From an uncultured Actinomycetes bacterium (GTDB lineage Bacteria > Actinomycetota > Coriobacteriia > Anaerosomatales > CAMTYE01): a DNA stretch of 64,000 nucleotides. Shown here in pieces: positions 1 to 62,944 of this stretch (its first letter is position 1; each line of letters opens with the position of its first letter). The DNA is taken from positions 5,153 to 69,152 of the forward strand of contig CAMTYE010000009.1 in assembly GCA_947085935.1 (NCBI GenBank), given 5' to 3'. The position numbers and the translations under genes were made by a program. A model generated the notes under the pieces. That model saw nothing but the letters and a program-made list of their open reading frames with translations. It had not been told where the DNA came from and searched no databases.

Positions 1-182
1 CTCGACGCGTCGCCGAGCTGATGAGGCGGGCGATCGTCGCGCGATTCGGGCCTGGTTTCGCCGAGGGAGTTCAGGCCGGCTTCCTGCATGAGATGTCCCC
101 GGAAGACGCAGCTCTGCTGAGCCGGGTTGGTGTCGCGGGTTACGACGGAGCCGGGGGAGGTGCGGGCGGTTCGCCCGGGTAG
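1..182 (+). CDS. 3' end of an unidentified CDS entering from upstream (partial)
   Basis: The reading frame starting at position 3 is open from the window edge to TAG at 180-182 (ends ...SRVGVAGYDGAGGGAGGSPG). It is absent from the ORF track because it has no start in the window. No recognisable domain. Confidence 0.3.
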   Translation, partial: RRVAELMRRAIVARFGPGFAEGVQAGFLHEMSPEDAALLSRVGVAGYDGAGGGAGGSPG

Positions 183-185
183 GAT

Positions 186-893
186 ATGAGCCAATGGGGC
201 CTGATCGCGGTGTTCATCATATACGGGGGATCGTTCCTCGTCATGGCTTGGGTGCTCTGGCAGCACATCCGGCGCACCGCCGGCGTGGGCGTGACCTCAC
301 GTCTCAACTTCCTTGCGCTGTTCGCGCTGACGCATGGCCTGTCGGATCTCATGGACGCGGCGTTGCGGTTCCCCGGCGTTGACCCGGACCCGTCAGGGCC
401 CGCAGCCGTCATCCGGCTCACGCTGCTGGTGGTCTCCTTCCTCTTCCTTCTCCTCTTCGGGCTGGTTGTCACTGTGGACGACGTGGGCCTGCAGAGGGTG
501 ATCATCGGGTTCGGGACGCTTGCCGTCGCGGGGATGGTGGCCGGTCTTGCGGCGCTGTTCCTGGCGGATTCGACTGCAGATTCGTTCGCCGCGACGGAGA
601 AGGCGACGCGGCTACTCGTTGGGCTGCCGGGGGCCGCGCTCTCCGCGGTGGCCCTGGTCAGAATCAGCCGGATCTGTTCCCGGCTCGGTCTTCACCACTG
701 CGCGACCGGTGCGAGGGTGGCCGCGTTCGGCATGGCGGCCTACGGAATCCTCGCGGGTGGTGTCGCCACCGGATACCCGCAGGCCGTGATGGTCCTCGGA
801 CTTCCCATCCAGCTGCATCGCATGGCAGCCGCCGTCGTGTTGACCGTAGGCTGCGTGTGGATGCTCCAGAAGCTGGAGTATGACCGGGAGTAG
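186..893 (+). CDS. Polytopic integral membrane protein, function unknown
   Basis: 235-aa ORF with about 6-7 hydrophobic segments (LIAVFIIYGGSFLVMAWVLW, LNFLALFALTHGL, IRLTLLVVSFLFLLLFGLVV and others). GC-rich third codon positions. GGTAGGA lies just upstream of the ATG. The overlapping ORFs in other frames are Arg/Pro-rich junk. Confidence 0.7.
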   Translation: MSQWGLIAVFIIYGGSFLVMAWVLWQHIRRTAGVGVTSRLNFLALFALTHGLSDLMDAALRFPGVDPDPSGPAAVIRLTLLVVSFLFLLLFGLVVTVDDVGLQRVIIGFGTLAVAGMVAGLAALFLADSTADSFAATEKATRLLVGLPGAALSAVALVRISRICSRLGLHHCATGARVAAFGMAAYGILAGGVATGYPQAVMVLGLPIQLHRMAAAVVLTVGCVWMLQKLEYDRE

Positions 894-940
894 ACTTCGG
901 GCCGTCGGCGAATCACCCGTCCTCCTGACTGCCCCGGAGG

Positions 941-1987
941 CTACGTGCGGCCCATTCGGCGGCGGCCGGCTGCGAGCGACAGCAGCACGAGCGACACGAC
1001 CGACAGGCCGGCAAGCTCGGCCATGGCCAGGCCCCGGATGGTGCCGATCTCCCGGGCCAGCGCAGAAACCTCATGACGAACGAGGACGACGCCAATGAAG
1101 CGTTGGTCGGCGTCGTGCAGGGGGAACGTGCCTACCGTGAACAGGCGCCCCTCGGAGTGCACCGGCGGGAGGGCGACCGGCCCGTCCTTCATCGATCGGG
1201 ACAATGCGGGCATATCGTCCAGATCCACAGCCGGGGATGTGGCGTATGTGAGAACGAGGTCAGGATGCCGGCTCTCGTCCGGCTGGTCTCCGGGCACGTC
1301 CGCTGTGCCGGGAGGTACGACGCCGGCGAGGAGCTCCCGGTCGAGGGCGAGCCCGTAGTCGTCGCCCAGCGAGATCTTCATGGAGTCGAGGAGGTGTTCG
1401 ACGCCCTGGCCGACCTCGATGTACCCGAGCAGGTCGCCCTCAGCACCGTAGAAGGGATGCACGACCCGCAACGCGAACTCGTCGACGCCGAACTCCTTGC
1501 CGGAGGCGAAGTACTTCGTTCTGACCGCCGCGCGGTGTGTCGAGCGCGTCACGGAATCGCCGAACTTCTCGGGGGCGTGAACGCGCAGGAAGACCGTTGA
1601 TTCGGGCTCGGGAAGACTGAAGTACATTCGTGTGACGCCGAATCTCTTGGTGAGACGTTCGAAGTCCGCACGAACCGCGTCGTGAAGCCCCTGCCTGTCC
1701 CGGCGCGCGAAGCTGTCCCGGAGGTCATCTCGCGCCATGAGGCTATCGAGGACGGCTTCGAGGCGCAGGGGCTCTCGGCGCTCCAGGTCCGCATATGATC
1801 TCATCGCGTCTGATACGACCTGCGTGCCGATGTGGTCGATCACGGTTGTCTCGGTTCGCCGGGCGAGCGTGATGAGAATCGCTCCGACCAAAACGCCAAC
1901 GACCAGCAGCGTGAGGTATCCCGTTATGCCCGGCCATCGCGGGCCGGCCGGGGTGTCTGCCTCGCTATGGGCCGTCCGCTCATCCAC
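941..1987 (-). CDS. Membrane-anchored extracytoplasmic sensor-like protein (double Cache-type domain) without output domain
   Basis: N-terminal TM (ITGYLTLLVVGVLVGAILITL) and C-terminal TM (LAMAELAGLSVVSLVLLSLAA). The protein stops 8 residues after the second TM. The central region has the pattern I associate with Cache_3-Cache_2 sensor domains (RMYFSLPE..TVFLRVHAPEKFGD...GKEFG...ALRVVHPFY...GDLLGYIEVGQGVEH). Confidence 0.7.
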   Translation of the reverse strand: MDERTAHSEADTPAGPRWPGITGYLTLLVVGVLVGAILITLARRTETTVIDHIGTQVVSDAMRSYADLERREPLRLEAVLDSLMARDDLRDSFARRDRQGLHDAVRADFERLTKRFGVTRMYFSLPEPESTVFLRVHAPEKFGDSVTRSTHRAAVRTKYFASGKEFGVDEFALRVVHPFYGAEGDLLGYIEVGQGVEHLLDSMKISLGDDYGLALDRELLAGVVPPGTADVPGDQPDESRHPDLVLTYATSPAVDLDDMPALSRSMKDGPVALPPVHSEGRLFTVGTFPLHDADQRFIGVVLVRHEVSALAREIGTIRGLAMAELAGLSVVSLVLLSLAAGRRRMGRT

Positions 1988-2030
1988 GGCACTCCCGCAT
2001 CTCAGTCCGGTGTGTCTGCAGTCGACGCGC

Positions 2031-2501
2031 CTACCGCGCTATCGCGACCGCCACGAGTCTCAGGTTGTCAACGTCGCCCATTGCGGCAGTGGTCTGAACA
2101 TCGAACGGTTCGATGTCACCAGGGCTCAGGGACTCCGCAACGACGAATCCGACGACGCGGCGAGCTCCCTCATCCGAGTCCTCCTTGCCGGTCTCGGCGC
2201 GAATCTCGAACTTGACCGCTTTGAATTCGTCGGCCCCCAGATTCGCGGCCTGGCCAAAGACCCTGGCGAGACCCGTGTCGGACGCGTAGACGTTCTGGAC
2301 CTCTCCCACGAGGACCTCTGCGTAGTCCATCTGCTCCTTACTGGAGAGGTCCTTGAAGGAGTAGCCTTTCGCCGCGTCGCCCGTGTCAGCCTTGCTCGTG
2401 GCCAGCTCTACCCGGGGATTGACACATCCGGTGCCGAGCATGGCGGTGGAGATCAGCCCAACGATGACGAGGGTTATAGGGAATCTGCCAACGAAGCGCA
2501 T
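2031..2501 (-). CDS. Lipoprotein, function unknown
   Basis: I chose the internal ATG at 2501, preceded by GGAGGA, rather than the ORF-track start at 2699. Signal peptide with lipobox (MRFVGRFPITLVIVGLISTAMLGTGC). Same strand as the Cache-like gene and immediately upstream of it. Confidence 0.7.
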   Translation of the reverse strand: MRFVGRFPITLVIVGLISTAMLGTGCVNPRVELATSKADTGDAAKGYSFKDLSSKEQMDYAEVLVGEVQNVYASDTGLARVFGQAANLGADEFKAVKFEIRAETGKEDSDEGARRVVGFVVAESLSPGDIEPFDVQTTAAMGDVDNLRLVAVAIAR

Positions 2502-2620
2502 GTGGTCCTCCGTGATTAGTCTGATTCGGTGGTTGAGGCGAAGTGCACCCTTGTCGGATAGTACAGTTTGGACTAAACTAAAGCAAGATGAAGCAATAGA
2601 CGTTAAGGCGAGGACTCGGT

Positions 2621-3232
2621 ATGATGCGACTTCGTCAAGCGGAAGGACCTGGCGTGACCCGATGTGCAGGTGTTGCTCGGCTTCTGGTGCTTCTGGCACT
2701 CATGGTATCGCTACTCGCCCTCTCCGGCTGCGGTCAGGCGTCGACGAGCGTCAACCTACTGGATGATCTGGACTCGGCGAGCTCGGAAGAGCTCGTTGAG
2801 ATATCCGTGTTCTTCCCGTCTTCAGACACGATTATCGAGGAGAAGCGGTCGGTGGAGCCCGACGAGGCCACGCCTCTCACGGCACTGAAGATCATGTTCG
2901 AGGAGGAGCCCGAAGACACGAGCCACACCAAGACGCTTCCCGAGGCCAAGGTGCTCTCTGCGTCGATCGATGACGGGACCGCCCGGATCGACTTCGACCG
3001 CGGCGTCCTGGTCTCAGGTTCGGATCCCGGGACCCAGCGCGTGGCCCTTGTTGCCATCATCTATGCGATGAAGCAGTTCCCCGGTGTCGAGCAGGTCGCC
3101 TTCTCGGTGGAGGGCAAGACGAGCGGCCAGATCGACGGCAAGGACATCGAGACCTTCTGGGGCGAGGTCAGCCTCAGTGATATGCCCTGGTCTGCAGCCG
3201 AGCCGGTGCAGACGACGGACGGAAAGGAATAG
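2621..3232 (+). CDS. GerMN-domain lipoprotein
   Basis: Lipobox (LLALSGCG). Mature part matches the GerMN pattern (ISVFFPSSD...TPLTALKIMFE...LPEAKVLSASIDDGTARIDF...ALVAIIYAMKQFPGVEQVAFSVEGK). Confidence 0.75.
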   Translation: MMRLRQAEGPGVTRCAGVARLLVLLALMVSLLALSGCGQASTSVNLLDDLDSASSEELVEISVFFPSSDTIIEEKRSVEPDEATPLTALKIMFEEEPEDTSHTKTLPEAKVLSASIDDGTARIDFDRGVLVSGSDPGTQRVALVAIIYAMKQFPGVEQVAFSVEGKTSGQIDGKDIETFWGEVSLSDMPWSAAEPVQTTDGKE

Positions 3233-3234
3233 CA

Positions 3235-3969
3235 TTGGGCACGTTGGGATACTCCAGCAAGCCGCGATTCGGACCCGGTCGAGGCAAGATGCTCTTCGGA
3301 CTGGTTCTGGCCGCGCTGATCGTCATCACGGCTCTGAACTCCGTGCGGATCGTCACCGGACTCCGCGCGGACGTTGCGGGTCGGGGAGCCCGCTCCACCG
3401 AGGAGCGGTACCTGCAGGATGCTCTCGCCGCTGTGAAGCAGGACCCGAACAGCCTGCAGGCGCGCTGGCAGCTCAGCATCGCGCTCTCCACGGTGGGCGA
3501 GTACTCCAGGGCTCAGGCCGAGGCCGAGCAGGCCGTCAAGCTCGACGAGGAATCAGTCGAGGCGTTCTATGCTCTGGGCGTGGCCTATCGGGGACTGCGC
3601 GACAACGTGCGGGCCGAGAAGGCGCTCGCGAAGTCGGCCGGCTTTCCCGGCTCGCATAGCGAGATCTACCGCGAGGTCTACTACGAGCTTGGCGAGGTTC
3701 GCTCGGAACTCGGCGACGCGCAAGGCGCGGTCACTGCGTTCCAGGGTGCTCTTGGCAACGGTCCCGAAGCCACGTACATCGTCGTGAGGCTCGCCCAGGC
3801 GTACCTCGATGTCGGGGAGACCGAGCGCGCGAAAGAGGAGTTCCTTGCGGTTCTCGGCTACGACCCCGAAAACGAGATCGCCGAGACGGCGTTGCTCGAG
3901 ATGGGTGTAGGGCGCGATGAGATCGACGCCGCGCGCGACCCGATAGCTCACCAAGACGATAACTCGTAG
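3235..3969 (+). CDS. Membrane-anchored TPR-repeat protein
   Basis: TTG start 6 nt after GGAAAGGA. N-terminal TM (MLFGLVLAALIVITAL). At least three TPR-like helical repeats (WQLSIALSTVGEYSRAQAEAEQAVKLDEESVEAFYALGVAYRGLRD...). Confidence 0.75.
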   Translation: MGTLGYSSKPRFGPGRGKMLFGLVLAALIVITALNSVRIVTGLRADVAGRGARSTEERYLQDALAAVKQDPNSLQARWQLSIALSTVGEYSRAQAEAEQAVKLDEESVEAFYALGVAYRGLRDNVRAEKALAKSAGFPGSHSEIYREVYYELGEVRSELGDAQGAVTAFQGALGNGPEATYIVVRLAQAYLDVGETERAKEEFLAVLGYDPENEIAETALLEMGVGRDEIDAARDPIAHQDDNS

Positions 3970-3973
3970 GAGG

Positions 3974-5431
3974 ATGATCGGTGTGACCCGTACCGCCAGC
4001 TCACTCCGCAGGCCGAGGATGGGAATCGTGCTGCTTCTCGGCGCGCTCGCCCTTCTCGCGGCGGGTTCCTGGTATGCCGCTTCACTTCTGAACGACCCCC
4101 TCGTTGCGTCCGGGGGCGGTGCCAAGACCGAGGGCTACTCGCACCTGAGCTCGCTGTACGGCAAGGGTCCGGACCGGCTCAACAGGCCTACTGAGGTCAC
4201 GGTCGACGCGAAGGGCAACATCTACGTCGCCGACTCGTTCAAGCACCGCATCGTCGTTTTCGATTCAAGCGGTGTCTTCGTGAGGACCATAGGAAGCCCG
4301 GCGAACGTCGACGGGGCACTCAAGTTCCCGTCGTCCGTGCGTGTTGATGATCGCGGACGGGTCTACGTCACGTCCTCCGAGCCCGGAAAGGTCGTCATCT
4401 TCGGGGCGGACGGAAGTGTCATCCGCTCGGTCGATGTGCCGGAGCCTCTAACCCTTGCGATAGCCGACGATCGGCTGTATGTGGCGACCGCGAGCGGGAT
4501 ACTCATCGGCGACCTGGATGGCAATCAGATCGGGCAGCTGTCAGAGCGCGGCAAAGAGCCGGGCATGATAGACCGGCCTACCGGCATCGCCGTGGATGAC
4601 GACGGTACGATCTACATCGCGGACTCGCTGAACTACCGGTTCCAGGCCATCGACGCCAAGGGCGAGGTCAAGTGGAGCACCGGCGCCGGCCCCGACCCCG
4701 CGAAAGCGGTTGTCGATCGCGACCGTACGTACGGTCTGCCCTCGAGCATCACGATCGGGTCGGATGACCTGCTGTATGCCATCGACGCGTTCAACGGGAT
4801 GATCGTCGTCCTGAACAAGGACGGAGAGCATCTTGCCGAGTATGGCCAGTGGGGGCGCCAGGACGGCCAGTTCTACTACCCCACGGGAATCGCCCAGGTG
4901 AGCCCCGAGCGATTCGTGATAGCTGACACCTTCAACGACCGGCTGCAGTTCGTGGGCGTGCCGAGTCTCAATCCCGGCGTAGGGACCCTCGCCAACAGGA
5001 GCTGGCCGTGGGCAGTGCCTGCACTGCTTCTGCTCGGGCTGCTTGTTCTCGCTCGCCGCCCGGCCGCGGTTGTCGCCGAGGCCGAGGGTCTGCGGGTCGC
5101 GCATGAACGCGAGCTGTTGGAGGACCTGATCCGCGAATCCAAGACGATATTCGTTCCGGCGGGTACGGCTGAGGCCATCGCGGATCTGCTGGACTCCCAC
5201 GACGGGCTTGCCGAATCGCTCCGTGAAGTCGATCTGGGTGATCTCGCGGACGGAGTCAGGCCCGGTCTCGAGCTGGCACTCCGGCTGAAGGGCCGGTTCG
5301 CGATTCGACGCGTCGCCCTCGCGTTTCCCGACGGGGAGCTGGCGGAGCTGGCACGTGACAGCGGTCTGGGCGTTCTCGATGACGGCACTCCCGTTGCGGC
5401 AGTGGGCGTGGCGGGAAGCGGTCTCTCCTAG
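3974..5431 (+). CDS. NHL-repeat beta-propeller protein with two TM segments and a cytoplasmic C-terminal domain
   Basis: AGGAGG RBS. N-terminal TM (GIVLLLGALALLAAGSWY). Repeated NHL signatures (GNIYVADSFKHRIVVFDSSG, GRVYVTSSEPGKVVIF, GTIYIADSLNYRFQAID, LLYAIDAFNGMIVVLN, RFVIADTFNDRLQFV). Second TM (WPWAVPALLLLGLLVLA) followed by about 125 aa of unassigned sequence. Confidence 0.85.
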   Translation: MIGVTRTASSLRRPRMGIVLLLGALALLAAGSWYAASLLNDPLVASGGGAKTEGYSHLSSLYGKGPDRLNRPTEVTVDAKGNIYVADSFKHRIVVFDSSGVFVRTIGSPANVDGALKFPSSVRVDDRGRVYVTSSEPGKVVIFGADGSVIRSVDVPEPLTLAIADDRLYVATASGILIGDLDGNQIGQLSERGKEPGMIDRPTGIAVDDDGTIYIADSLNYRFQAIDAKGEVKWSTGAGPDPAKAVVDRDRTYGLPSSITIGSDDLLYAIDAFNGMIVVLNKDGEHLAEYGQWGRQDGQFYYPTGIAQVSPERFVIADTFNDRLQFVGVPSLNPGVGTLANRSWPWAVPALLLLGLLVLARRPAAVVAEAEGLRVAHERELLEDLIRESKTIFVPAGTAEAIADLLDSHDGLAESLREVDLGDLADGVRPGLELALRLKGRFAIRRVALAFPDGELAELARDSGLGVLDDGTPVAAVGVAGSGLS

Positions 5432-5470
5432 CAGCACGATGTTGAAAACCGGTTGATCTACTGGAGTCAC

Positions 5471-5487
5471 TAGTCCCAACGGGACTA
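5471..5487 (+). terminator. Short hairpin between the NHL gene and the cytochrome gene (weak terminator or attenuator candidate)
   Basis: TAGTCCC-AAC-GGGACTA, a 7-bp stem with a 3-nt loop, 40 nt after the NHL stop codon. The loop is very small and there is no clear U-tract. Confidence 0.25.
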
Positions 5488-5583
5488 ATGCGATTTCGCC
5501 TCACATGGGCGGGAAATCAGTGCAGGAAGGGAGGTGGTGTGTGAATGCACACAACGACACAACACACAGGGAAGGGAAGTACA

Positions 5584-7320
5584 ATGAAGAGAGTGTTTGT
5601 TCTCGCTGCGATGGCCATGGTGCTGATCGCGGCAACTGCCGGCGCCGCTTTCGCCGCAGATCCGACGTCTACCGTCAATCCTACCGTTCCGTTCACGTTC
5701 ACTGAGGCCAATCCTGAGAATGCCAGCATCCCCACGACTGTTTCCGGGACCGGCATCGCCAACGGATTCGGCGCCTCGGCATGGACGTACAAGGACGCCG
5801 CCGACTCCGCCGCGAAGACCGAGGGCTCGTACAACGCCTTCGACGATCAGACCGGCGACGGCACGTACACGACCAATCCGCACGGCGGCTACAGCACGAC
5901 GTCGAACAAGTGCAAGACCTGCCATGCAGTCCACCGCGCCAACGGCGCCTTCGCCCTCATGCGCGTGGATAACCCCGACGATGCGTGCAACTACTGCCAC
6001 ATCGGTTCGCACCGTCACGCCACCAGCGAGGCCTACTTCGGTGGCAGCAACGGCATCTACTCGAGCAACGGTCACACGATCGGCTCCAGCAAGTCGATTC
6101 CTGACAGCTCGGTGTGGCAGTGGACCGAGACCGTAGCGCTCACGTCTGCCGACGGCAGCGCCAACGTCCCGATTCGCCGTTACATGAGCGCGAAGAACAA
6201 GATCATGCGCTACATCGTGCACGGCAACCGTTGGATCCGCGTTGGCCCGTACAACCTGCGTTGCGCAAGCTGCCACCAGGTCCACAACGCCACGCAGCAG
6301 ATCTGGAAGCCTGTCTCGTCCGGCTACCTGCCCGGCGGTGGTGTTGCCGGCACGAAGCTGACCAACGGCTACAAGCTGCTCCGCAACAGCCCCTCCGGCG
6401 GTATCCAGGTCCGCGGCACCGACATCAACGCCGACGGCACGCTCAACGCGAGCCCCGCAGCCCTGTCGCGTGCGTACAGCCGTCTGAACCACACGTACTA
6501 CGATCCGGGCGTTACGGGTGCTCTTGACGGACTCGCTTCGAACTCCGTTGACTACCGTATCAAGGCACTCGAGACCACGATCACGCTGGCGACGGGTGAT
6601 GATGCTGTCACCGGCCTCCCGGTCCAGGGTGCGAACATCACCGGCTACACGCCGTTCAAGTACTTCGCCCCGACCAACACCGCTAGCCAGGCCCCGGCCA
6701 CTGCACCCGTCAACGAGGCCTCGCTCTCGTGGTGGTGCGCTGACTGCCACAACCTGAACATCGCAGGCAAGTCGCTGGCCCCCGGCTTCGGTGGCGGTCG
6801 CTCCGGCGACACGATGCTCGGCGACCGCTCGCACGCGGTTCCGAACCAGTTCCGCATCAATGCTTCCGGTGAGATCGCTTCGGCGGGCGCGCACTGCACC
6901 CAGTGCCACAACAACGACATGCCGCTCGACGGTGCCGCGATGTTCACTGGCGCTGACTGCGGCGCATGTCACGTGACGACCCAGATGTATCACTACTACA
7001 AGAACGACCTCGCGGTCGGCGGTTCGACGTGGGCGGCTCGCAATGACGCTCGCGCCAAGAACGCTCCCGTCGCGGCTCGTTCCGACTTCCCGCACTCCGG
7101 TCCGGACTGGGGCAAGAAGCTCCTGAACGCCCGCGACCGTCGTCTCCAGACCAGCGCCAGCTCGAACAACACAGCGATCAACCCGACGCTGTACACCCTT
7201 GGTGGCGCCAACTACGACACCCAGGGTTCTGCGTTCGATGCCAGCACCGATGGTCAGGACAAGATCTGTGCCATCTGCCACGGTGGCGCGAAGTTCCGCG
7301 CGATCGGGTACGACAAGTAG
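5584..7320 (+). CDS. Secreted heptahaem c-type cytochrome
   Basis: I chose the ATG at 5584 (GGGAAGGGAAG upstream), giving the signal peptide MKRVFVLAAMAMVLIAATAGAAFAADP. Seven CxxCH motifs: CKTCH 5911-5925, CNYCH 5986-6000, CASCH 6262-6276, CADCH 6736-6750, CTQCH 6895-6909, CGACH 6958-6972, CAICH 7267-7281. Composition is rich in Gly, Ser, Thr and Asn. Confidence 0.9.
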   Translation: MKRVFVLAAMAMVLIAATAGAAFAADPTSTVNPTVPFTFTEANPENASIPTTVSGTGIANGFGASAWTYKDAADSAAKTEGSYNAFDDQTGDGTYTTNPHGGYSTTSNKCKTCHAVHRANGAFALMRVDNPDDACNYCHIGSHRHATSEAYFGGSNGIYSSNGHTIGSSKSIPDSSVWQWTETVALTSADGSANVPIRRYMSAKNKIMRYIVHGNRWIRVGPYNLRCASCHQVHNATQQIWKPVSSGYLPGGGVAGTKLTNGYKLLRNSPSGGIQVRGTDINADGTLNASPAALSRAYSRLNHTYYDPGVTGALDGLASNSVDYRIKALETTITLATGDDAVTGLPVQGANITGYTPFKYFAPTNTASQAPATAPVNEASLSWWCADCHNLNIAGKSLAPGFGGGRSGDTMLGDRSHAVPNQFRINASGEIASAGAHCTQCHNNDMPLDGAAMFTGADCGACHVTTQMYHYYKNDLAVGGSTWAARNDARAKNAPVAARSDFPHSGPDWGKKLLNARDRRLQTSASSNNTAINPTLYTLGGANYDTQGSAFDASTDGQDKICAICHGGAKFRAIGYDK

Positions 7321-7354
7321 CGTTTCGAAGAAGAGAGCCTTCTTCAGTACGAGG

Positions 7355-7380
7355 ACAGGGGACCCGCGAGGGTCCCCTGT
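7355..7380 (+). terminator. Intrinsic-terminator-like hairpin after the cytochrome gene
   Basis: ACAGGGGACCC-GCGA-GGGTCCCCTGT, a perfect 11-bp GC-rich stem with a GCGA loop, 35 nt after the stop codon. The downstream tract is only weakly T-rich. Confidence 0.55.
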
Positions 7381-7484
7381 CTGCGTTCTCGGCAATCGGG
7401 CGCCGTTGCTGCCCGCGAGCCAGACCCTTCGGCCCCGCACGACCCCCCTCCGGGCATGTCCGATGACCGTTCATCGCGCGGTCA

Positions 7485-7514
7485 TTGACGCACCACATAT
7501 GGGGTGCCTAGACT
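7485..7514 (+). promoter_or_regulatory. Candidate nrdJ promoter (-35 TTGACG, 18-bp spacer, -10 TAGACT)
   Basis: TTGACG at 7485-7490 and TAGACT at 7509-7514, about 105 nt upstream of the nrdJ ATG. Hexamers read directly from the sequence. No experimental TSS. Confidence 0.35.
7491..7506. promoter_or_regulatory. Operator-like palindrome 1 in the nrdJ promoter (CACCACATATGGGGTG)
   Basis: Near-perfect 16-bp palindrome lying within the promoter spacer. Shares the core ACATATGG with box 2. Centre-to-centre distance to box 2 is 31 bp. Confidence 0.45.
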
Positions 7515-7521
7515 CGTCTAT

Positions 7522-7537
7522 CGCTACATATGGTGGA
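7522..7537. promoter_or_regulatory. Operator-like box 2 in the nrdJ promoter (CGCTACATATGGTGGA)
   Basis: Second copy of ACATATGG, just downstream of the putative -10. The tandem arrangement resembles NrdR-box pairs, but the match to the published NrdR consensus as I recall it is poor. Confidence 0.4.
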
Positions 7538-7618
7538 GGGGCGGTCGCGGGCCTGAGGGCCCGCTTTGGCCGTATGAACGGAACAGAAGACTGGCTCGTG
7601 GCTAGAGAGGGGCGCACC

Positions 7619-9898
7619 ATGCCCGATGCGGCACGCAAGACCGGGTACTCCCGGGCGATAGATGAACTGCTGACACCGAACTCCCTCAAGGTCTTGCAGA
7701 GACGCTACCTGCTCAAGAACGAAGACGGCACGCCGTGTGAGTCGGCGAGTGACATGTTCGTGCGGGTCGCCGAGAACATCGCGAGCGCCGAGCTGGCGTT
7801 CGGCGGCGATGAGGCGTCGGTCTGTGAGGCTGCAGCGGACTTCTACGACCTCATGACATCGCTGGAGTTCCTCCCGAACTCGCCGACGCTCATGAACGCC
7901 GGCCGCGAGTTGCAGCAGCTCTCGGCATGCTTCGTCTTGCCGGTCGAGGACTCGATGGAGTCGATCTTTGGCGCGGTGCGGGATACGGCGCTCATTCACA
8001 AGTCAGGCGGAGGCACCGGCTTCTCGTTCTCGCGCCTGCGTCCCGGCGGCGATCAAGTGCGTTCGACACAAGGGGTATCGAGCGGACCGGTCTCATTCAT
8101 GCGCGTGTTCAACCAGGCGACCGAAGCGGTGAAGCAGGGCGGGACACGTCGTGGTGCGAACATGGGTGTCCTGCGCATCGATCACCCTGATATCCTCCAG
8201 TTCATCAAGTGCAAAGAGGACGGGGACTTCGCGAACTTCAACATAAGCGTCGCTCTCACCGAGAGGTTCATGGATGCCGTCAGGGCTGGCACCCACTACG
8301 AGCTGCTCAATCCGCGATCCAAGGAGATGGCGGGCACGCTTGACGCACGCGAGGTCTACGATCTGATCGTCGAGATGGCGTGGGCTACCGGCGACCCGGG
8401 CATCATCTTCATCGACCGCATGAACAGGGACAACCCGACTCCGGCACTGGGGGAGATCGAGTCCACCAACCCCTGCGGCGAGCAGCCCTTGCTGCCGTAC
8501 GAAGCGTGCAACCTGGGCAGTGTGAACCTCTCGAAGTTCGTCACGATGCGAGAGGGTGGGGCGGACGTCGATTGGGATCGTCTCGGGGACGTGGTCGGCA
8601 GAGCCGTACGTTTCCTCGACAACGTCATCGAGGTCAACGAGTACCCGCTCGCCCAGATTGGCGAGCTGGCCCGCGGCAACCGCAAGATCGGACTGGGCGT
8701 CATGGGTTGGGCCGACATGCTCATCAAGATGGACGTGGCCTACGATTCCAAAGAGGCCGTGGCCCTCGGCGAGAAGGTCATGGGATTCATCCAGGCCGAA
8801 GCCAAGTCCGCGTCCCGCAAGCTCGCTGCCGAACGCGGCGACTTCGCCAACTGGTCGGGTTCGGTCTACGACAGCCCTGACGGCGGGCCGATGCGCAATG
8901 CCACCGTGACGACCATCGCACCGACGGGCACGTTGTCGATCATTGCGAACTGCTCGAGCGGGGTCGAGCCGCTGTTCGCCGTGAGCTACGTGCGAACCGT
9001 CATGGACAACGACCGGCTCATCGAGGTGAACCCGGTCTTCGAGGAGATCGCCGTCAAGCGCGGCTTCTACTCCTCTGAGCTCATGGCGCTCATCGCCGAT
9101 CACGGCTCCGTGCACGGGATCGATGATGTCCCTGAAGACATACGACGCATCTTCGTGACGGCGCACGACATAGCACCGGAGTGGCACATCAAGATGCAGG
9201 CTGCGTTCCAGCGTCACACGGACAACGCCGTGTCCAAGACCGTGAACTTCGCCACCGAGGCGACCGTAGCCGACGTCCGACACGTCTACGATCTCGCCAA
9301 CGAACTCGGGGTCAAGGGTGTCACGATCTATCGCGACGGCTCCAAAGAGGGACAGGTGCTAACGACGGGCAAGAGCGGAGCGTCCACTGAGGTCGTTCAG
9401 ACCGGCAAGCATGGTGAGATCGAGCCTCGTCCCCGGCCGATGGTCACGCAGGGCCGCACCGAGAAGATACAGACCGGATGCGGCAACCTCTACGTCACCG
9501 TGAACTGGGACGAGCAGGGCATGTGCGAGGTCTTCACGCAGATGGGAAAGTCAGGCGGATGTGCCTCCTCGCAGTCAGAGGCGCTCTCCCGCATGATCTC
9601 GGTCTCTCTGCGCGCCGGCGTCGATCCGGAAGCGATTCTCAAGCACCTGCGGGGCATCCGCTGCCCCAGCCCCTCGTGGACTGAAGGCGGCAAGGTCCTT
9701 TCCTGCGCGGATGCAGTCGGCATTGTGATGGAGCATGCGCTCACGTATATGGAGACCGGGGAGGCTGGGAAGGGAGTCACCAAGATGGGCGAGAAGCTCG
9801 ATTACCTTTCGGGAGCGTGCCCGGAATGCGGCGGCTCGCTGGAGCACGAGAGCGGGTGTGCCGTCTGCCGCGCGTGCGGCTTCAGCAAGTGCTCGTAG
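7619..9898 (+). CDS. nrdJ: Adenosylcobalamin-dependent (class II) ribonucleotide reductase
   Basis: I chose the ATG at 7619 (GAGAGGGG RBS). The ORF-track start at 7199 overlaps the cytochrome gene. RNR signatures LPNSPTLMNAG, SACFVLPV, GGGTGFSFSRLRP and STNPCGEQPL. C-terminal Cys-rich Zn-ribbon CPECGGSLEHESGCAVCRACG. Confidence 0.9.
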   Translation: MPDAARKTGYSRAIDELLTPNSLKVLQRRYLLKNEDGTPCESASDMFVRVAENIASAELAFGGDEASVCEAAADFYDLMTSLEFLPNSPTLMNAGRELQQLSACFVLPVEDSMESIFGAVRDTALIHKSGGGTGFSFSRLRPGGDQVRSTQGVSSGPVSFMRVFNQATEAVKQGGTRRGANMGVLRIDHPDILQFIKCKEDGDFANFNISVALTERFMDAVRAGTHYELLNPRSKEMAGTLDAREVYDLIVEMAWATGDPGIIFIDRMNRDNPTPALGEIESTNPCGEQPLLPYEACNLGSVNLSKFVTMREGGADVDWDRLGDVVGRAVRFLDNVIEVNEYPLAQIGELARGNRKIGLGVMGWADMLIKMDVAYDSKEAVALGEKVMGFIQAEAKSASRKLAAERGDFANWSGSVYDSPDGGPMRNATVTTIAPTGTLSIIANCSSGVEPLFAVSYVRTVMDNDRLIEVNPVFEEIAVKRGFYSSELMALIADHGSVHGIDDVPEDIRRIFVTAHDIAPEWHIKMQAAFQRHTDNAVSKTVNFATEATVADVRHVYDLANELGVKGVTIYRDGSKEGQVLTTGKSGASTEVVQTGKHGEIEPRPRPMVTQGRTEKIQTGCGNLYVTVNWDEQGMCEVFTQMGKSGGCASSQSEALSRMISVSLRAGVDPEAILKHLRGIRCPSPSWTEGGKVLSCADAVGIVMEHALTYMETGEAGKGVTKMGEKLDYLSGACPECGGSLEHESGCAVCRACGFSKCS

Positions 9899-9978
9899 CG
9901 CGGGACTCCCGGCAGAATCGACCCGCGGTCGTCTCCCGCTGACACGGAGGCGGCGGCGCGAAAGGCGTGTGGCGACGA

Positions 9979-10542
9979 ATGGTCCTCTCGGATCACAGCA
10001 TCAAAGAGCAGCTGCTTGCGGGCAGGATCCGCATCGAGCCGTTGAATCCCGATGACATCCAGCCCTCCAGCGTGGATGTCCACCTCGGCACGAACTTCGA
10101 GGTCTTCAGGAACTCGAGGTACCCGTATATCGATCCCAGCCGGGAACAGGACGGCCTCATGGAGCTCGTCGAGGCGACCGCGAAGGAGCCGTTCGTCTTG
10201 CACCCCGGGGAGTTCGTGCTCGGTACGACAGTCGAGCGCATCGTTCTTCCGGACGACATCGTCGGACGACTCGAGGGCAAGAGTTCCCTCGGCAGACTCG
10301 GGTTGCTCATCCACTCGACTGCCGGCTATGTCGATCCCGGTTGGGACGGCCGGCTCACCCTCGAGCTGTCGAACGTGGCGAATCTGCCGATAGTGCTGAT
10401 GCCCGGAATGGCCATCGGGCAGGTGTCGTTCTCGGGCATGAGCACGCCGGTGGATCGTCCGTACGGGACGCCGGGGCTTGGCAGCAAGTACCAGGGTCAA
10501 ACAGACGTCACGCCGAGCAGGTCGCACCGGAACTTCGACTAG
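9979..10542 (+). CDS. dcd: dCTP deaminase
   Basis: MVLSDHSIKEQLLAGRIRIEP...SSVDVHLG...GKSSLGRLGLLIHSTAGYVDPGW.G.LTLEL. I chose the ATG at 9979 instead of the upstream GTG. Confidence 0.9.
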   Translation: MVLSDHSIKEQLLAGRIRIEPLNPDDIQPSSVDVHLGTNFEVFRNSRYPYIDPSREQDGLMELVEATAKEPFVLHPGEFVLGTTVERIVLPDDIVGRLEGKSSLGRLGLLIHSTAGYVDPGWDGRLTLELSNVANLPIVLMPGMAIGQVSFSGMSTPVDRPYGTPGLGSKYQGQTDVTPSRSHRNFD

Positions 10543-11630
10543 AGTCCCCTGGTGACCATGCTCACGACAGGCGCCGGGATGAAGCCTGCCAGGTACTTGC
10601 CGGCGTTCGACTCCATGAATGGCAGCCACATGAGCTTGCGACGGATGTTCGACCGGATATGGCCCGTAGCGCGGACATAGGCGGCGAGGCCGTCTCCGGC
10701 GGAGCTCTCGGCGATCGCCTGCCCGGCGAGCAGACCCGAGTTCATCGCGTACGATATGCCTTCGCCCGAGGTGGGGGACATGAACCCACCGGCTTCGCCC
10801 ACCAGCAACACCCGACCTGCACCCGGGACGACGTCGCTCCGGTTGCGAACGTACAGCGCCACGCTGGCTTCGCGTTTGATGGTCTCCCCGAGCTGGGGCA
10901 GTCGCTCTCGTAGGACCCGCAGGGTCTGGTCCTGCTTCTCATGCGGGCGCTTCGTCTTGGGGTAGTACACCGACCCCACGATCGCCACCTCGCCCTTCGG
11001 CACGACGTAGCTGTACGCGTAGCTGTCTCCGATGTCCCGCATGTAGATGCAGTCGAAGAACGGCTCCAGCTCACCCTCGAGCCGGACGAAGTCCTGCAGC
11101 GTCACATAGGTCGCGGCACTGCCGGCTCCGAGAGAGCGGCGAATGGTCGAGCGCGCGCCGTCCGCGCCCACGAGGGTCCGACATCGGACCTGCCCCGGGT
11201 CGCCCCCGTTGCGCAGCGTGACGGTCACTCCACCGGGGTCCTGCGAGAACCCCGTAGCTCCGTGGGACGGGAGAACTTCGACGTTTGACGGCAGAAGGGA
11301 GATCAGCCACGCGTCGAAGGCCCTGCGGTCGACGTTGAGGAAACGCAGCGCCGTCGCCTTCTTGAGATCGCGGTCCCAGTCCCAGTATCTGAAGTTCACA
11401 TGGGAGGGCTCGAGCGCCATCTCGTCCGGAATCGGGGCGATGGTCGCGAGGAACTCCCGGGCGTACTCGTTGAGCATCCCACCGCAGCTCTTGTCCCTTG
11501 GCAGCGCCGAGGAATCGACCAACAGGACCGGCCCGCGCTCCGCAGCCCTCAGTGCCGCCATGATGCCGGCAGGTCCGGCTCCGGCGACGATAGTCTCATA
11601 GTCCGCGCCGCGCCTATGGCCAGAGTTCAT
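10539..11630 (-). CDS. FAD-dependent oxidoreductase, CbrA / geranylgeranyl-reductase-like
   Basis: I chose the ATG at 11630 (GGGGAGG RBS). Dinucleotide fold motif IVAGAGPAGIMAAL. Also CGGML, LVGADGARSTIRR and LVGEAGGFMSPTSGEGISYAM, which resemble CbrA-type flavoproteins. Confidence 0.8.
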   Translation of the reverse strand: MNSGHRRGADYETIVAGAGPAGIMAALRAAERGPVLLVDSSALPRDKSCGGMLNEYAREFLATIAPIPDEMALEPSHVNFRYWDWDRDLKKATALRFLNVDRRAFDAWLISLLPSNVEVLPSHGATGFSQDPGGVTVTLRNGGDPGQVRCRTLVGADGARSTIRRSLGAGSAATYVTLQDFVRLEGELEPFFDCIYMRDIGDSYAYSYVVPKGEVAIVGSVYYPKTKRPHEKQDQTLRVLRERLPQLGETIKREASVALYVRNRSDVVPGAGRVLLVGEAGGFMSPTSGEGISYAMNSGLLAGQAIAESSAGDGLAAYVRATGHIRSNIRRKLMWLPFMESNAGKYLAGFIPAPVVSMVTRGL

Positions 11631-11769
11631 GCGCGTACCTCCCCAAGGATGACGTACCACGCCGGGGGGCACGATTCCTGCTAATGACATGCAGGACCGG
11701 GCCGCACTCTCCGCGCGGGCGCGGGAGTCATAGTATCATCCTCGGTACCCACGAATCACAGGAGGAAGC

Positions 11770-12015
11770 ATGGCGAAATGCTGGGAACAGCGCGGATGCG
11801 ATGAGGAGATGCAGGCGAGCTGCCCGCATCCGAACGAGTTCGCGGACAACTGTCCGACCAAGTGCGCGTTCGCAACCTGTGATCGGCCGAGTCACGAGCT
11901 GACGATCGACCCGGAACTCGTCTTCGACCCGTCGGTCGATAGGTCTCAGGCCATCAAGGACGAATGCGCGATCTGCGGCTTCTTCCTCAGGAACGGTCCG
12001 AGGGTCGGCGAGTAG
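11770..12015 (+). CDS. Small eight-cysteine protein (CW-motif, metal or redox-cluster candidate)
   Basis: Strong RBS (AGGAGGAAGC before the ATG). 81 aa with Cys at 4, 10, 18, 28, 32, 37, 66 and 69. N-terminal KCWEQRGC and C-terminal CAICGFF. Codon usage looks coding. Confidence 0.65.
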   Translation: MAKCWEQRGCDEEMQASCPHPNEFADNCPTKCAFATCDRPSHELTIDPELVFDPSVDRSQAIKDECAICGFFLRNGPRVGE

Positions 12016-57537: not shown

Positions 57538-58452
57538 GTGATCGGAGTGCGAGTGGGCTTGCGAATCAACGGACGCACGCGACTTGCCGGTATCATCGGC
57601 AATCCAATCACACATACCCTGTCTCCCGCGATGCACAACGCCGCCTATGAGGCGCTCGGATTGGACTGGGTCTACGTTCCGTTGCCACTTGAGGACGAGA
57701 CGGATCTCATGCGCTTCATGGGTGCCGCCCGCGTGCTTCCGTTCGTGGGCTTCAACGTGACCATGCCGTTCAAGCAGGCCATGCTCACGATGTGCGATGA
57801 AGTGGCCATGCTGGCCACCATGGCCGGGGCTGTGAACACCGTGCACTGCGTCGACGGCAGGTTCATCGGCTACAACACGGATGCGCGTGGCCTCGTCGAG
57901 GCGCTTCAGGCCGAGGTGGGGTTCAGCTCGGAGGGACGCGACATCGTCATCATCGGCGCCGGTGGCGCTGCCGGTGCCGCTGCGGTCGGCTTCATGCTCG
58001 GCCGCGCGAACCGAATCACGATCGCCAATCGTAGTCTCGAGCGGGCCGAGGAGCTCTACGGGCGCCTTGCCCCGCATGTACGCACGACCGAAGTCGCAGT
58101 CGTGTCGCTCTCAGACGCAGAGGAGGCGATCTCCTCGGCGGCCGCTGTTATCAACGCGACACCGGTCGGCATGACGCCATCGGAGCCGTCGCCCGTACCC
58201 ACCGCATGGCTCAGGCCCGGTCAGGTCGTATGCGACATGCTCTACGGCCCGCACCGGACTCAGCTGCTCGTCGATGCTGAATCCGCGGGGGCGACCGCCG
58301 TCAGCGGCCTTGGAATGCTCGTTGCCCAGGGTGCGCTTGCGGTCGACATCTGGAGCGAGTCCGCGCAGACCCGCGCGCCCCGCGATGTGATGCACGCTGC
58401 GGCGGTGGATGCTCTGCGAGGCGTCCAGGCAGGGGAGGCTGCGCCGGCGTGA
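57538..58452 (+). CDS. aroE: Shikimate dehydrogenase
   Basis: GIIGNPITHTLSPAMHNAA, NVTMPFK, NTD.RG and IIGAGGAAGA. Confidence 0.9.
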   Translation: MIGVRVGLRINGRTRLAGIIGNPITHTLSPAMHNAAYEALGLDWVYVPLPLEDETDLMRFMGAARVLPFVGFNVTMPFKQAMLTMCDEVAMLATMAGAVNTVHCVDGRFIGYNTDARGLVEALQAEVGFSSEGRDIVIIGAGGAAGAAAVGFMLGRANRITIANRSLERAEELYGRLAPHVRTTEVAVVSLSDAEEAISSAAAVINATPVGMTPSEPSPVPTAWLRPGQVVCDMLYGPHRTQLLVDAESAGATAVSGLGMLVAQGALAVDIWSESAQTRAPRDVMHAAAVDALRGVQAGEAAPA

Positions 58453-60119: not shown

Positions 60120-60272
60120 CCCTCACGTTCCGACCGGGCGAAAAGCCGCAGGTCGCGGTTGTTTCGCTGGTGCCTTCGTGAGAGACTAAGGGTGCTCGCC
60201 GCATAGCGGTGGCTTCTTCTCGCACGTTCGGGAAGCATACGCGCCGGCTGCCTCCCGGGAGGTGTCAACTAC

Positions 60273-60881: not shown

Positions 60882-60927
60882 ACACCGGATGCGGCGGCTC
60901 CAAAGAAGAAGGGTGCGAAGGTAGCCG

Positions 60928-62925: not shown

Positions 62926-62944
62926 CGAAGGGTGTAGTCGCTAC

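Follow-up and report, generated by a model that had tools for sequence, protein, structure and literature searches.

The heptahaem cytochrome gene of the window (the whole 64-kb stretch of DNA analysed here) and the three genes that precede it are the distal half of a conserved eight- or nine-gene cluster, which, in our judgement, probably encodes an extracellular electron-transfer conduit of a monoderm cell, equipped with a dedicated scaffold. That the source organism is a monoderm is our assumption, made from its lineage. An ORF check of the window places the four genes on the plus strand at the positions listed below, and ORFs, Pfam matches and sequence features agree with the initial annotation, which had listed a lipoprotein with a GerMN domain, an anchored TPR protein, an NHL propeller and, last, a secreted cytochrome that carries seven CxxCH sites. 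The features of the region are:

186–893, plus strand: polytopic membrane protein (235 aa; several hydrophobic segments)
941–1987, minus strand: dCache_3 sensor-like protein (Pfam dCache_3, 3.5e-11)
2031–2501, minus strand: small lipoprotein (156 aa; lipobox L-G-T-G-C), divergent from the GerMN gene
2502–2620, no strand: spacer between the divergent GerMN and small lipoprotein genes (119 bp)
2621–3232, plus strand: GerMN-domain lipoprotein (203 aa; lipobox L-S-G-C; Pfam Germane)
3235–3969, plus strand: TPR protein with one N-terminal TM helix (244 aa; TPR families)
3974–5059, plus strand: NHL beta-propeller with flanking membrane helices (Pfam NHL; TM segments)
5060–5431, plus strand: C-terminal tail of the NHL protein, predicted PIN-like alpha/beta domain (AlphaFold2, Foldseek)
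5584–7320, plus strand: secreted heptahaem c-type cytochrome, cyt7 (578 aa from M14)
7349–7386, plus strand: GC-rich hairpin, 29 nt past the cyt7 stop codon

The first three genes are as tightly packed as had been claimed, with gaps of 2 nt after the GerMN gene and 4 nt after the TPR gene, and the NHL gene is followed after 113 nt by the cytochrome gene, or after 152 nt when cyt7 is taken to start at M14 (5584). The N-termini of homologues favour this start over the ATG at 5545 (ORF 5545–7320, 591 aa). Likewise, the TTG start of the TPR gene at 3235 is supported by a conserved N-terminus, MGxLxxxxxPxxGPG, common to the orthologue in locus L003. The 119-bp region ahead of the GerMN gene is visibly AT-richer than the flanking sequence and, judged from its sequence, is probably a promoter region shared with the small lipoprotein gene; the single sigma-70-like match found there, at 2597–2625, is weak evidence, since the count is no higher than expected by chance. 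At the other end, the hairpin at 7349–7386 contains a perfect 13-bp stem within a longer helix, and the 80-nt stretch that carries it folds at −42.3 kcal/mol as against −27.0 for shuffled sequences (z = −5.1). It lacks a U-run, and was therefore missed by a simple terminator scan, but likely marks the transcription end of the unit.

The domain and topology calls made earlier hold for all four proteins, by Pfam and by their hydrophobic segments, except that the NHL protein also has a further TM helix and, beyond it, a tail in the cytoplasm. The GerMN protein matches Pfam Germane at 2.5e-12 (47.8 bits against a cutoff of 23), and its orthologues in loci L001, L003, L005 and L006 are 33–54% identical. 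The TPR protein (TPR_8 at 7e-13 as the best match, plus TPR_16 and TPR_19; orthologues at 44–55% identity) has its TM helix at aa 15–43, preceded by a basic N-terminus, and the TPR domain is predicted to lie outside the cell. The NHL protein, of 485 aa (whole ORF 3974–5431, plus strand), matches NHL at 2.6e-22 as well as the six-bladed propeller families SGL and DUF5128. It is built of TM1 (aa 14–39), the propeller, a Pro-rich linker and TM2 (aa 347–369, ending in RR), an architecture kept in 25 homologues of 34–59% identity. The tail beyond TM2 has no match in a Pfam search, and was modelled by AlphaFold2 with a pLDDT of 91 and a pTM of 0.84; the top Foldseek matches of this model against the PDB are all PIN domains (2hww, 2dok, 1y82 and VapC), with a probability of 0.99, an E value of 0.02 and a TM score of 0.55 for 2hww. 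On the strength of the model, this cytoplasmic tail is a PIN-like domain, and probably a non-catalytic one, as none of its acidic residues is invariant in the homologue alignment.

Cyt7 matches Cytochrome_C7 (1.8e-10), Cytochrom_c3_2 and Paired_CXXCH_1. It carries a cleavable signal peptide ending AFA|ADP, and no membrane, lipid or wall anchor was seen in its sequence, including the C-terminus. The seven CxxCH motifs (CKTCH, CNYCH, CASCH, CADCH, CTQCH, CGACH and CAICH), counted as first reported, are all invariant across 42 homologues; by a rough estimate, typical Cys and His frequencies predict about 0.003 chance motifs for a protein as long as this, and no other ORF of the window has two or more. 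The same 42 proteins also conserve seven His residues outside the motifs (H100, H117, H145, H164, H234, H417 and H504). Thus, bis-His ligation is possible for every haem, and such ligation, as read from the alignment, would mark an electron carrier rather than a catalytic site. The family is small: a search of 1.84 billion representatives gave 81 clusters at E ≤ 1e-30. Neither sequence nor fold searches of the PDB returned a relative, and an NrfA-, HAO-, Otr-, MccA- or OcwA-like identity was ruled out on this ground; the protein falls outside the nitrite and hydroxylamine reductase groups. The structure model, made without haems, reaches a pLDDT of 72.8 (below 50 for residues 80–147) and contains little regular secondary structure; being of moderate confidence and haem-free, it makes the lack of fold matches weak evidence.

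Could cyt7 instead reduce a substrate that is soluble or serves iron uptake (assimilatory ferric iron or a chelate, a sulfur or a nitrogen compound), outside any respiratory conduit directed at solids? A cyt7 paralogue in an Aquicultorales MAG directly adjoins Fur, FTR1, FeoA and FeoB (L007), and SmhC of Carboxydothermus ferrireducens, of equal size and haem count, is induced not only by ferrihydrite but also by soluble ferric citrate (PMC7829351). However, the copy in the window has no iron-uptake neighbours, neither CxxCK nor another signature of a catalytic haem was seen in cyt7, and its seven conserved distal His residues match seven six-coordinate haems. Cyt7 moreover has no similarity to NrfA, HAO, Otr, MccA or MccSep, and tight linkage to 25 more haems in two membrane-tethered cytochromes would be excessive for an assimilatory enzyme. 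We consider a reductase of this kind quite improbable.

These two cytochromes lie just outside the window. The public contig L058 overlaps positions 1–3788 and is identical over all 3,788 bp, with 0 mismatches; within 4.9 kb upstream of the window it encodes a TM protein of about 220 aa, a cytochrome with 12 CxxCH motifs (328 aa) and one with 13 (359 aa). The source genome therefore has the full cluster. The 13-haem cytochrome has an N-terminal helix, with the first haem motif about 10 residues beyond it. Quinol oxidation by this protein is a guess, as it has no NapC/NirT Pfam match in the source genome and its L006 orthologue has a local match of 50 residues only. A fifth conserved member of the cluster, missed in the initial annotation, is the small lipoprotein. 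It has no Pfam family, but is 40–42% identical (E 3e-31 and 3e-30) to the products of the genes that lie immediately upstream of the GerMN gene in L001 and L003 and, more weakly (24%, E 3e-7), resembles those of the counterpart genes in L005 and L006; a gene of 156 aa was called independently on L058. Thus, the four genes are not the complete partner set that had been proposed; the conserved unit also has the small lipoprotein, the membrane protein of about 220 aa and the 12- and 13-haem cytochromes. The polytopic membrane protein at 186–893, which has no Pfam match and whose gene directly follows one for a PadR plus DUF4388 regulator on L058, is a peripheral and partly conserved neighbour: it is 54% identical to the product of L003 5629–6363, at a matching relative position, and 41–43% identical to homologues in L025 and L033. 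The dCache_3 protein (TM segments at aa 18–45 and 317–341 flanking the domain; no output domain) has no homologue called at the equivalent position in L001 or L003, and its gene is, at this position, specific to the source genome. No cytochrome c maturation system was found within the 64-kb window, nor a CcsA/ResC-type WWD motif in the 59 sequences scanned (the window and L001–L058).

The co-occurrence of the genes in relatives, at first proposed as a check, is seen from the cyt7 side and from the NHL side. Among 33 species-level representative genomes that carry cyt7, 18 have the full set (GerMN, TPR, NHL, cyt7, 12-haem and 13-haem) in one locus of about 20 kb, the GerMN gene adjoins the TPR and NHL genes in 18, and the 12- and 13-haem pair is present in 27; most misses lie at contig edges. 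The set, found also in L001, L003, L005 and L006, is kept in relatives from 66% to about 31% cytochrome identity and in at least three gene orders, so that the linkage survives rearrangement. Conversely, NHL homologues above about 35% identity, in loci chosen through the NHL protein, almost always have a TPR gene and multihaem ORFs alongside. Generic NHL proteins at or below about 33% identity, tested in reverse, have no such neighbours, and the NHL–cytochrome link is thus limited to this NHL subfamily. The carriers are uncultured anaerobic Actinomycetota (Coriobacteriia, Aquicultor and relatives), with no named isolate among the homologues found. Cyt7-type proteins are not strictly dependent on the accessory genes, since extra solo paralogues without them occur in many genomes (L007, L015, L016, L021, L028 and others). 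A role of the GerMN, TPR and NHL genes elsewhere in the envelope, for instance in wall remodelling or division, with the cytochrome genes as neighbours by chance, would accord with the generic nature of these interaction domains, found in many envelope processes, and with the gap of 113–152 nt and the hairpins ahead of cyt7, which permit separate transcription. Yet the linkage, which 18–21 of the 33 genomes show in three gene orders and which the reverse search also finds, and its loss outside this NHL subfamily, leave such a coincidence hardly credible.

Comparable relays of multihaem cytochromes, which lead from the membrane across the wall of a monoderm to a terminal cytochrome that is secreted or sits at the surface, are known from Thermincola potens and T. 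ferriacetica (ImdcA, PdcA, CwcA and OcwA) and from C. ferrireducens (OmhA and SmhA–C). SmhC is a secreted heptahaem protein of 62.3 kDa with Paired_CXXCH_1, induced on Fe(III) (PMC7829351), and equals cyt7 in size, haem count and Pfam match, as compared by description only. In contrast, no likeness of cyt7 to OcwA or any other solved cytochrome was detectable by sequence or profile, the 12- and 13-haem pair is far more haem-dense than those chains, and the word NHL is absent from the Thermincola and Carboxydothermus papers searched for it. NHL- and TPR-repeat proteins do occur in multihaem clusters (1-Fe-T, 2-Fe-T and 3-Fe-T) of another monoderm, Dethiobacter alkaliphilus, which are up-regulated on ferrihydrite and in which these proteins were suggested to help secretion, orientation or complex assembly (PMC10376724). 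That organism, however, belongs to a different phylum, and its published description includes neither a GerMN lipoprotein nor an NHL protein that combines two TM helices with a cytoplasmic tail.

In the OmcS (osc) and OmcE clusters of Geobacter and the Desulfuromonadia, beta-propellers likewise belong to the fixed set, alongside a secreted cytochrome and two more multihaems, although these systems are diderm, with an outer-membrane beta-barrel, and their propellers are lipoproteins. Minimal OmcE clusters comprise two multihaems, beta-propeller lipoproteins, a filament subunit and the barrel (bioRxiv 10.1101/2025.10.22.684050). The cluster described here, with two multihaems, a propeller, lipoproteins and an unanchored secreted cytochrome, lacks only the barrel, for which a monoderm would have no need, and it might therefore be a single-membrane counterpart in which cyt7 is a nanowire filament subunit and the NHL, TPR, GerMN and lipoprotein products form an assembly or anchoring machine. 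OscD, which is propeller-like, is reported by a citing paper to affect OmcS filament morphology, and the cyt7 model, with its scarce secondary structure and no known fold relative, would suit a filament subunit. Filament subunits of those systems, however, have 4–8 haems in known folds, and cyt7 shows no detectable sequence or fold likeness to OmcS, OmcE, OmcZ or archaeal filament cytochromes, the sole match being a 17-residue motif (7tfs_A, E 0.018); nor is an inter-subunit His ligand required, because conserved His residues of the same chain can ligate all seven haems. A filament is thus unlikely.

The same hardware could also carry electrons inward, from Fe(II) minerals, metallic iron, a cathode or a syntrophic partner to the quinone pool. 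Bis-His haem wires are reversible and no sequence feature sets their direction. Moreover, the best-documented NHL-propeller and cytochrome clusters, DFE_448–451 and DFE_461–465 of Desulfovibrio ferrophilus IS5, in which the propellers are co-expressed with extracellular multihaems and proposed to stabilise the cytochrome complex, are tied to electron uptake from electrodes under starvation (PMC5815863), although this organism is diderm and GerMN or TPR partners are not mentioned. On the other hand, oxidant-side respiratory genes were not seen beside the cluster in any locus examined, and the closest cultured lineage, the multihaem-rich Anaerosomatales (OPB41, Coriobacteriia), takes Fe(III) as acceptor (PMC9686372), which makes inward flow a rather unlikely direction. 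Isolates of that lineage encode 17–18 multihaems, so that multihaems are not unusual in anaerobic Coriobacteriia, contrary to what had been assumed; one is an obligate Fe(III) reducer, and both share a three-gene cluster of two putative quinol-oxidising multihaems and a third cytochrome (PMC9686372, a paper in which a search for the word NHL found nothing).

NHL and TPR proteins beside multihaem cytochromes, including those of Gram-positive clusters such as Dethiobacter (PMC10376724), and multihaems in anaerobic Coriobacteriia are thus already published; of the exact set with GerMN, no description was found in the literature searched. The analysis shows which genes are present, the topologies of their products, the conservation of haem motifs and ligands, and co-occurrence as tested from both sides; which way the electrons flow, what accepts them, whether the 13-haem protein oxidises quinol and how any of the proteins touch one another are inferred for an outward conduit. 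Electrons from the membrane quinol pool would enter the 13-haem cytochrome, held in the membrane by its N-terminal helix, and pass to the paralogous 12-haem cytochrome, the pair forming a long haem wire that may reach into the cell wall; they would end on secreted cyt7, which would pass them on outside the cell, for example to Fe(III) minerals, humic material or a partner cell. Since cyt7 has no anchor of its own, we propose that four proteins (the membrane-anchored NHL propeller, the TPR protein and the GerMN and small lipoproteins) together make up an extracytoplasmic platform. On it, cyt7 would be captured, positioned or assembled on the outer side of the membrane, beside the two large cytochromes, and the PIN-like tail would be the platform's cytoplasmic contact point. 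Cluster content, the bis-His cyt7, linkage and published context make the extracellular electron-transfer role first suggested the best-fitting reading.

The four plus-strand genes at the left end of the window encode a GerMN lipoprotein, a TPR protein, an NHL propeller protein and cyt7, a secreted heptahaem c-type cytochrome; the open reading frames have the coordinates, and the first three the 2-4 nt gaps, that the initial annotation gave, and Pfam searches bear out the domain assignments. These genes, and that of a small lipoprotein divergently oriented from the GerMN gene, are:

2031-2501, minus strand: small lipoprotein of 156 aa; lipobox LGTGC; divergent from the GerMN gene
2621-3232, plus strand: GerMN lipoprotein; Pfam Germane; lipobox LSGC
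3235-3969, plus strand: TPR protein; Pfam TPR families; one N-terminal hydrophobic helix
3974-5431, plus strand: NHL propeller protein; Pfam NHL and six-bladed propeller families
5545-7320 (start at 5584 favoured), plus strand: cyt7; Pfam, seven CxxCH motifs and a signal peptide

The GerMN protein scores 47.8 bits with PF10646 (cutoff 23; 2.5e-12; positions 2-115 of the 117 in the profile), the TPR protein is recognised by several TPR Pfam families (best 7e-13), and the NHL protein scores 78 bits with PF01436 (cutoff 20; 2.6e-22) and also matches SGL and DUF5128, being six-bladed by profile. The Pfam matches of cyt7 are to cytochrome c7, c3 and Paired_CXXCH_1, and the N-termini of its homologues favour the start at 5584, which gives a protein of 578 aa. 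The lipoprotein nature of the first product and the signal peptide of the last, both noted earlier, are visible in the sequence: the former as the LSGC lipobox, the latter, read by eye, as a hydrophobic segment (aa 12-39 in the 591-aa form) with AFA↓ADP behind it. With the cyt7 frame opened at 5545, the intergenic gaps along the unit are 2, 4 and 113 nt. The NHL-cyt7 gap is the largest, at 113-152 nt in the window (5432-5583) and about 525 nt in the related loci L005 and L006 (9480-10000), the other junctions being of 2-4 nt; in the window it holds small hairpins of ordinary folding energy (z = -1.35), and it may contain a promoter of cyt7 itself or a processing site. A strong hairpin lies directly 3' of the cyt7 stop codon and is likely to mark the end of the transcription unit. 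No Rfam family was matched in window positions 1-12000, and consensus scanning for promoters and terminators brought up no more than chance matches.

The four genes had been taken for a complete partner set, but more genes belong to it. In four relatives (L001, L003, L005 and L006), homologues of the small lipoprotein gene lie directly upstream of GerMN, and three more genes lie nearby, one for a membrane-anchored protein (199-246 aa) and two for large cytochromes, of which one has 12 haems and the other 12 or 13. The membrane-anchored protein and the two large cytochromes are absent inside the window, where no ORF other than cyt7 has two or more CxxCH motifs. A public contig, L058 (run ERR3478705), overlaps window positions 1-3788 without mismatch and reaches 4,881 bp further upstream; it encodes, in order, a 221-aa membrane protein, a 328-aa protein with 12 CxxCH motifs, a 359-aa protein with 13, a PadR+DUF4388 regulator and the membrane protein of window 186-893. 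Since L058 carries the missing genes, the cluster is complete in the source genome and is truncated by the edge of the window. The small lipoprotein gene is independently present in the public gene call on this contig. The three cytochromes of the cluster have 32 haem sites between them; two carry a hydrophobic anchor at the N-terminus, and the third is secreted and unanchored. The five accessory proteins, judging from sequence, are all exposed on the outer side of the membrane.

The genes of the two large cytochromes can escape gene callers. For L058 1417-3475, a stretch that closely precedes window position 1, the public annotation gives two Arg-rich minus-strand ORFs (319 and 359 aa) devoid of haem motifs; these are spurious, the plus strand of the same stretch encoding the 12- and 13-haem proteins. 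Through such mis-calls in high-GC metagenome-assembled genomes, multihaem cytochromes would be missing from protein databases and undercounted in surveys of cytochromes. The PadR+DUF4388 regulator (L058 3570-5063) separates the 13-haem gene from the start of the window. DUF4388 (PatA_N) recurs in a 665-aa protein at 60928-62925, near a PilB/T2SSE-type ATPase with an MshEN domain (58449-60119) and grouped with it and with a small Ras/MglA-like GTPase (62897-63472) in 58449-63472. A minus-strand gene at 941-1987, coding for a dCache_3 sensor domain between two membrane helices with no cytoplasmic output domain, is inserted between the membrane protein of the cluster and the small lipoprotein, and has no counterpart there in L001 and L003. 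Another public contig, L057, overlaps the window and extends downstream only; an 81-aa Cys-rich ORF at 11770-12015 (10 Cys, including CxxC-like pairs; no Pfam family) is also called on it. Further along the window, a single 1,216-aa ORF (38100-41750) joins RecJ modules (DHH, DHHA1, RecJ_OB) to HIRAN and a DEAD/Helicase_C helicase, in what looks like an unusual fusion.

Co-occurrence of the arrangement in relatives had been suggested as a test, and the arrangement recurs. A scan with the cyt7 alignment, using one genome per species, detected 49 loci in 33 assemblies, nearly all of them metagenome-assembled genomes of Coriobacteriia or other Actinomycetota, including Candidatus Aquicultor and Thermoleophilia. 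By tblastn, 18 of the 33 assemblies have GerMN, TPR, NHL, cyt7 and both large cytochromes in one locus of about 20 kb; TPR and NHL are found together in 21, the pair of large cytochromes in 27, and most remaining cases end at contig edges. The genes occur in at least three orders (GerMN-TPR-NHL-cyt7; TPR-NHL-GerMN-cyt7; and cyt7, the trio, then TPR-NHL-GerMN), so that the linkage has outlived rearrangement. The reverse test, in which metagenome loci were selected through the NHL protein, agrees: where the contig is long enough, nearly every homologue of more than about 35% identity adjoins a TPR gene and multihaem ORFs. Some 40 loci with generic NHL propellers (at most about 33% identity) have no TPR, GerMN or cyt7-family genes, and only one of them (L106) has a multihaem ORF nearby. 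That the accessory genes serve a function unrelated to the cytochromes is contradicted by this two-way co-occurrence, and we regard it as extremely improbable. In metagenome loci, members of the NHL subfamily are also found beside giant multihaem ORFs, of about 2,380 aa with 17 CxxCH motifs (L081 1863-9000) and of about 1,490 aa with 15 (L091 14616-19077).

The seven CxxCH motifs reported for cyt7 are confirmed and are invariant in all 42 aligned homologues. In the same alignment, seven His residues outside the motifs are invariant or at least 90% conserved (H100, H117, H145, H164, H234, H417 and H504), and would suffice for bis-His ligation of all seven haems. Because these extra His residues are as many as the haems, the pattern is that of an electron carrier rather than of a catalytic enzyme. 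No special catalytic haem was found either, all motifs being CxxCH, with no CxxCK, and the distal His residues not being short. Nor does cyt7 resemble, in sequence or in fold, the catalytic multihaem reductases NrfA, HAO/Otr, MccA and MccSep, the fold search having used a haem-free model and being weak evidence; MccSep, considered as a relative, was rejected as an unrelated pentahaem selenoprotein. A place for cyt7 in the nitrite or hydroxylamine reductase family, which would have spoken against the initial annotation, is thus not indicated by sequence, profile or, with this reservation, fold searches. OcwA of Thermincola, for which a structure is deposited in the PDB, is absent from the sequence, profile and fold matches of cyt7. 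Neither a C-terminal helix nor any other anchor is recognisable in the sequence. As to haem attachment, the 64-kb window encodes no cytochrome c maturation system, and a scan for the CcsA/ResC WWD motif in 59 sequences (the window and L001-L058) returned nothing, with a regular expression that was possibly too strict.

The family to which cyt7 belongs is small, with 81 clusters at E ≤ 1e-30 in a set of 1.84 billion representatives, and some of its members occur as fusions that exceed 1,200 aa (P0222 and P0363). Solo paralogues lacking the accessory genes are present in many genomes. One of these (34% identity; L007 8085-11788, in the Candidatus Aquicultorales assembly GCA_054604115.1) has no GerMN, TPR or NHL partners and directly adjoins genes for Fur, the FTR1 iron permease, FeoA and FeoB, a hint that some members of the family serve iron acquisition. 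This context would also suit a cyt7 that acts on a soluble substrate or in iron assimilation; the ligand pattern of cyt7 and its linkage to 25 further haems argue against such a role, which we consider quite improbable.

The NHL protein had been described as membrane-anchored. Its N-terminal helix (TM1) is confirmed, but a second membrane helix (aa 347-369) and the tail of about 115 aa that comes after it had been overlooked; the layout of TM1, propeller, Pro-rich linker, TM2 and tail is kept in 25 of 25 aligned homologues. Folded alone, the tail is predicted with pLDDT 91 and pTM 0.84, and its best Foldseek matches in the PDB are all PIN domains, with probabilities of 0.9-0.99 but E values of 0.02-0.07 and TM scores of about 0.5-0.55. 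There is no Pfam PIN match, and among the 25 homologues L412 is the sole strongly conserved tail position, no Asp or Glu being invariant or nearly so. In view of the modest scores and of the lack of a conserved acidic residue, we read the tail as a PIN-like cytoplasmic domain that is probably non-catalytic. The TPR protein was considered as a CcmI/CycH-like apocytochrome chaperone and the assignment rejected, PF23914 scoring 20 bits against a cutoff of 42, no better than generic TPR families. PDB searches with the GerMN, 12-haem and 13-haem proteins returned motif-level matches only. The first CxxCH motif of the 13-haem protein lies some 10 residues behind its N-terminal helix, and a homologue search with this protein gave 10 matches. 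Membership of the NapC/NirT family is doubtful and was not adopted: the copy of the source genome has no PF03264 match, and the L006 orthologue (29.0 bits, cutoff 24.1) aligns with profile positions 122-171 of 174 only.

We favour, with some confidence, the view that the cluster is an extracellular electron-transfer conduit with a dedicated membrane-anchored platform, the functions proposed here for its parts being those that we infer from sequence. Electrons from the quinol pool would exit through the 13-haem protein, the weakest step in the scheme because the NapC/NirT similarity is local and missing in the source genome's copy, and would then pass to the 12-haem paralogue, to cyt7 and to an external acceptor. 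A single-membrane cell would not retain a soluble cytochrome, which makes the anchored accessory proteins natural candidates for holding cyt7; the NHL propeller, the TPR protein and the two lipoproteins may thus capture, orient or assemble it, and the PIN-like tail could provide a cytoplasmic contact. The earlier proposal of an electron-transfer module was therefore right in kind, but its boundaries were wrong and its rarity overstated. Running the same hardware inward, for electron uptake, has a precedent in the NHL-propeller cytochrome clusters of D. ferrophilus (PMC5815863); we think it unlikely here.

Thermincola and Carboxydothermus (for the latter, PMC7829351) are established cases of multihaem relays that cross a Gram-positive wall, and the Fe(III)-induced SmhC of C. 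ferrireducens (PMC7829351) resembles cyt7, by description only, in size (62.3 kDa), in its seven haems and in Paired_CXXCH_1. In the monoderm Dethiobacter, NHL and TPR proteins are encoded within Fe-respiration cytochrome clusters, and a role in assembly has been suggested (PMC10376724). The set had been thought undescribed: NHL and TPR proteins in monoderm cytochrome clusters are thus published, but our literature search retrieved neither the exact eight- or nine-gene set, nor a two-TM NHL protein with a PIN-like tail, nor a paper linking GerMN with multihaem cytochromes; a preprint on a 'conserved MHC machinery' in peat concerns other phyla. Multihaem cytochromes had also been supposed to be unusual in the lineage, which they are not, cultured Anaerosomatales (Coriobacteriia) holding 17-18 of them (PMC9686372).

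Minimal OmcE clusters consist of two multihaem cytochromes, propeller lipoproteins, the filament subunit and an outer-membrane barrel (bioRxiv 10.1101/2025.10.22.684050), and the osc operon of OmcS includes OscD, reported in a citing paper to affect filament morphology. The barrel aside, the NHL propeller, 12-haem and 13-haem genes are a close parallel to the OmcE content. Conceivably, then, cyt7 has a fold not seen before and is the polymerising subunit of a conductive filament on the outside of single-membrane Actinomycetota, with the NHL, TPR, GerMN and small lipoprotein products as a membrane-embedded base for assembly and anchoring and the two large cytochromes feeding the filament. Against this, cyt7 has no sequence or fold similarity to the known filament subunits (OmcS, OmcE, OmcZ and the archaeal ECNs), and we hold a filament to be rather improbable; if true, no machinery of the nanowire type would have been defined earlier in Gram-positive bacteria.

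How multihaem cytochromes are held and wired in single-membrane, thick-walled bacteria is still poorly understood. To our knowledge, the cases studied are few and all from thermophilic Firmicutes. For anaerobic Actinomycetota of the subsurface and of sediments, the cluster, an electron-transfer conduit in our preferred reading, offers a compact and recurrent parts list of three cytochromes, with their 32 haems, and five accessory envelope proteins. From it, specific and testable hypotheses can be drawn on why NHL propellers accompany extracellular cytochromes, a pairing long noted but unexplained.
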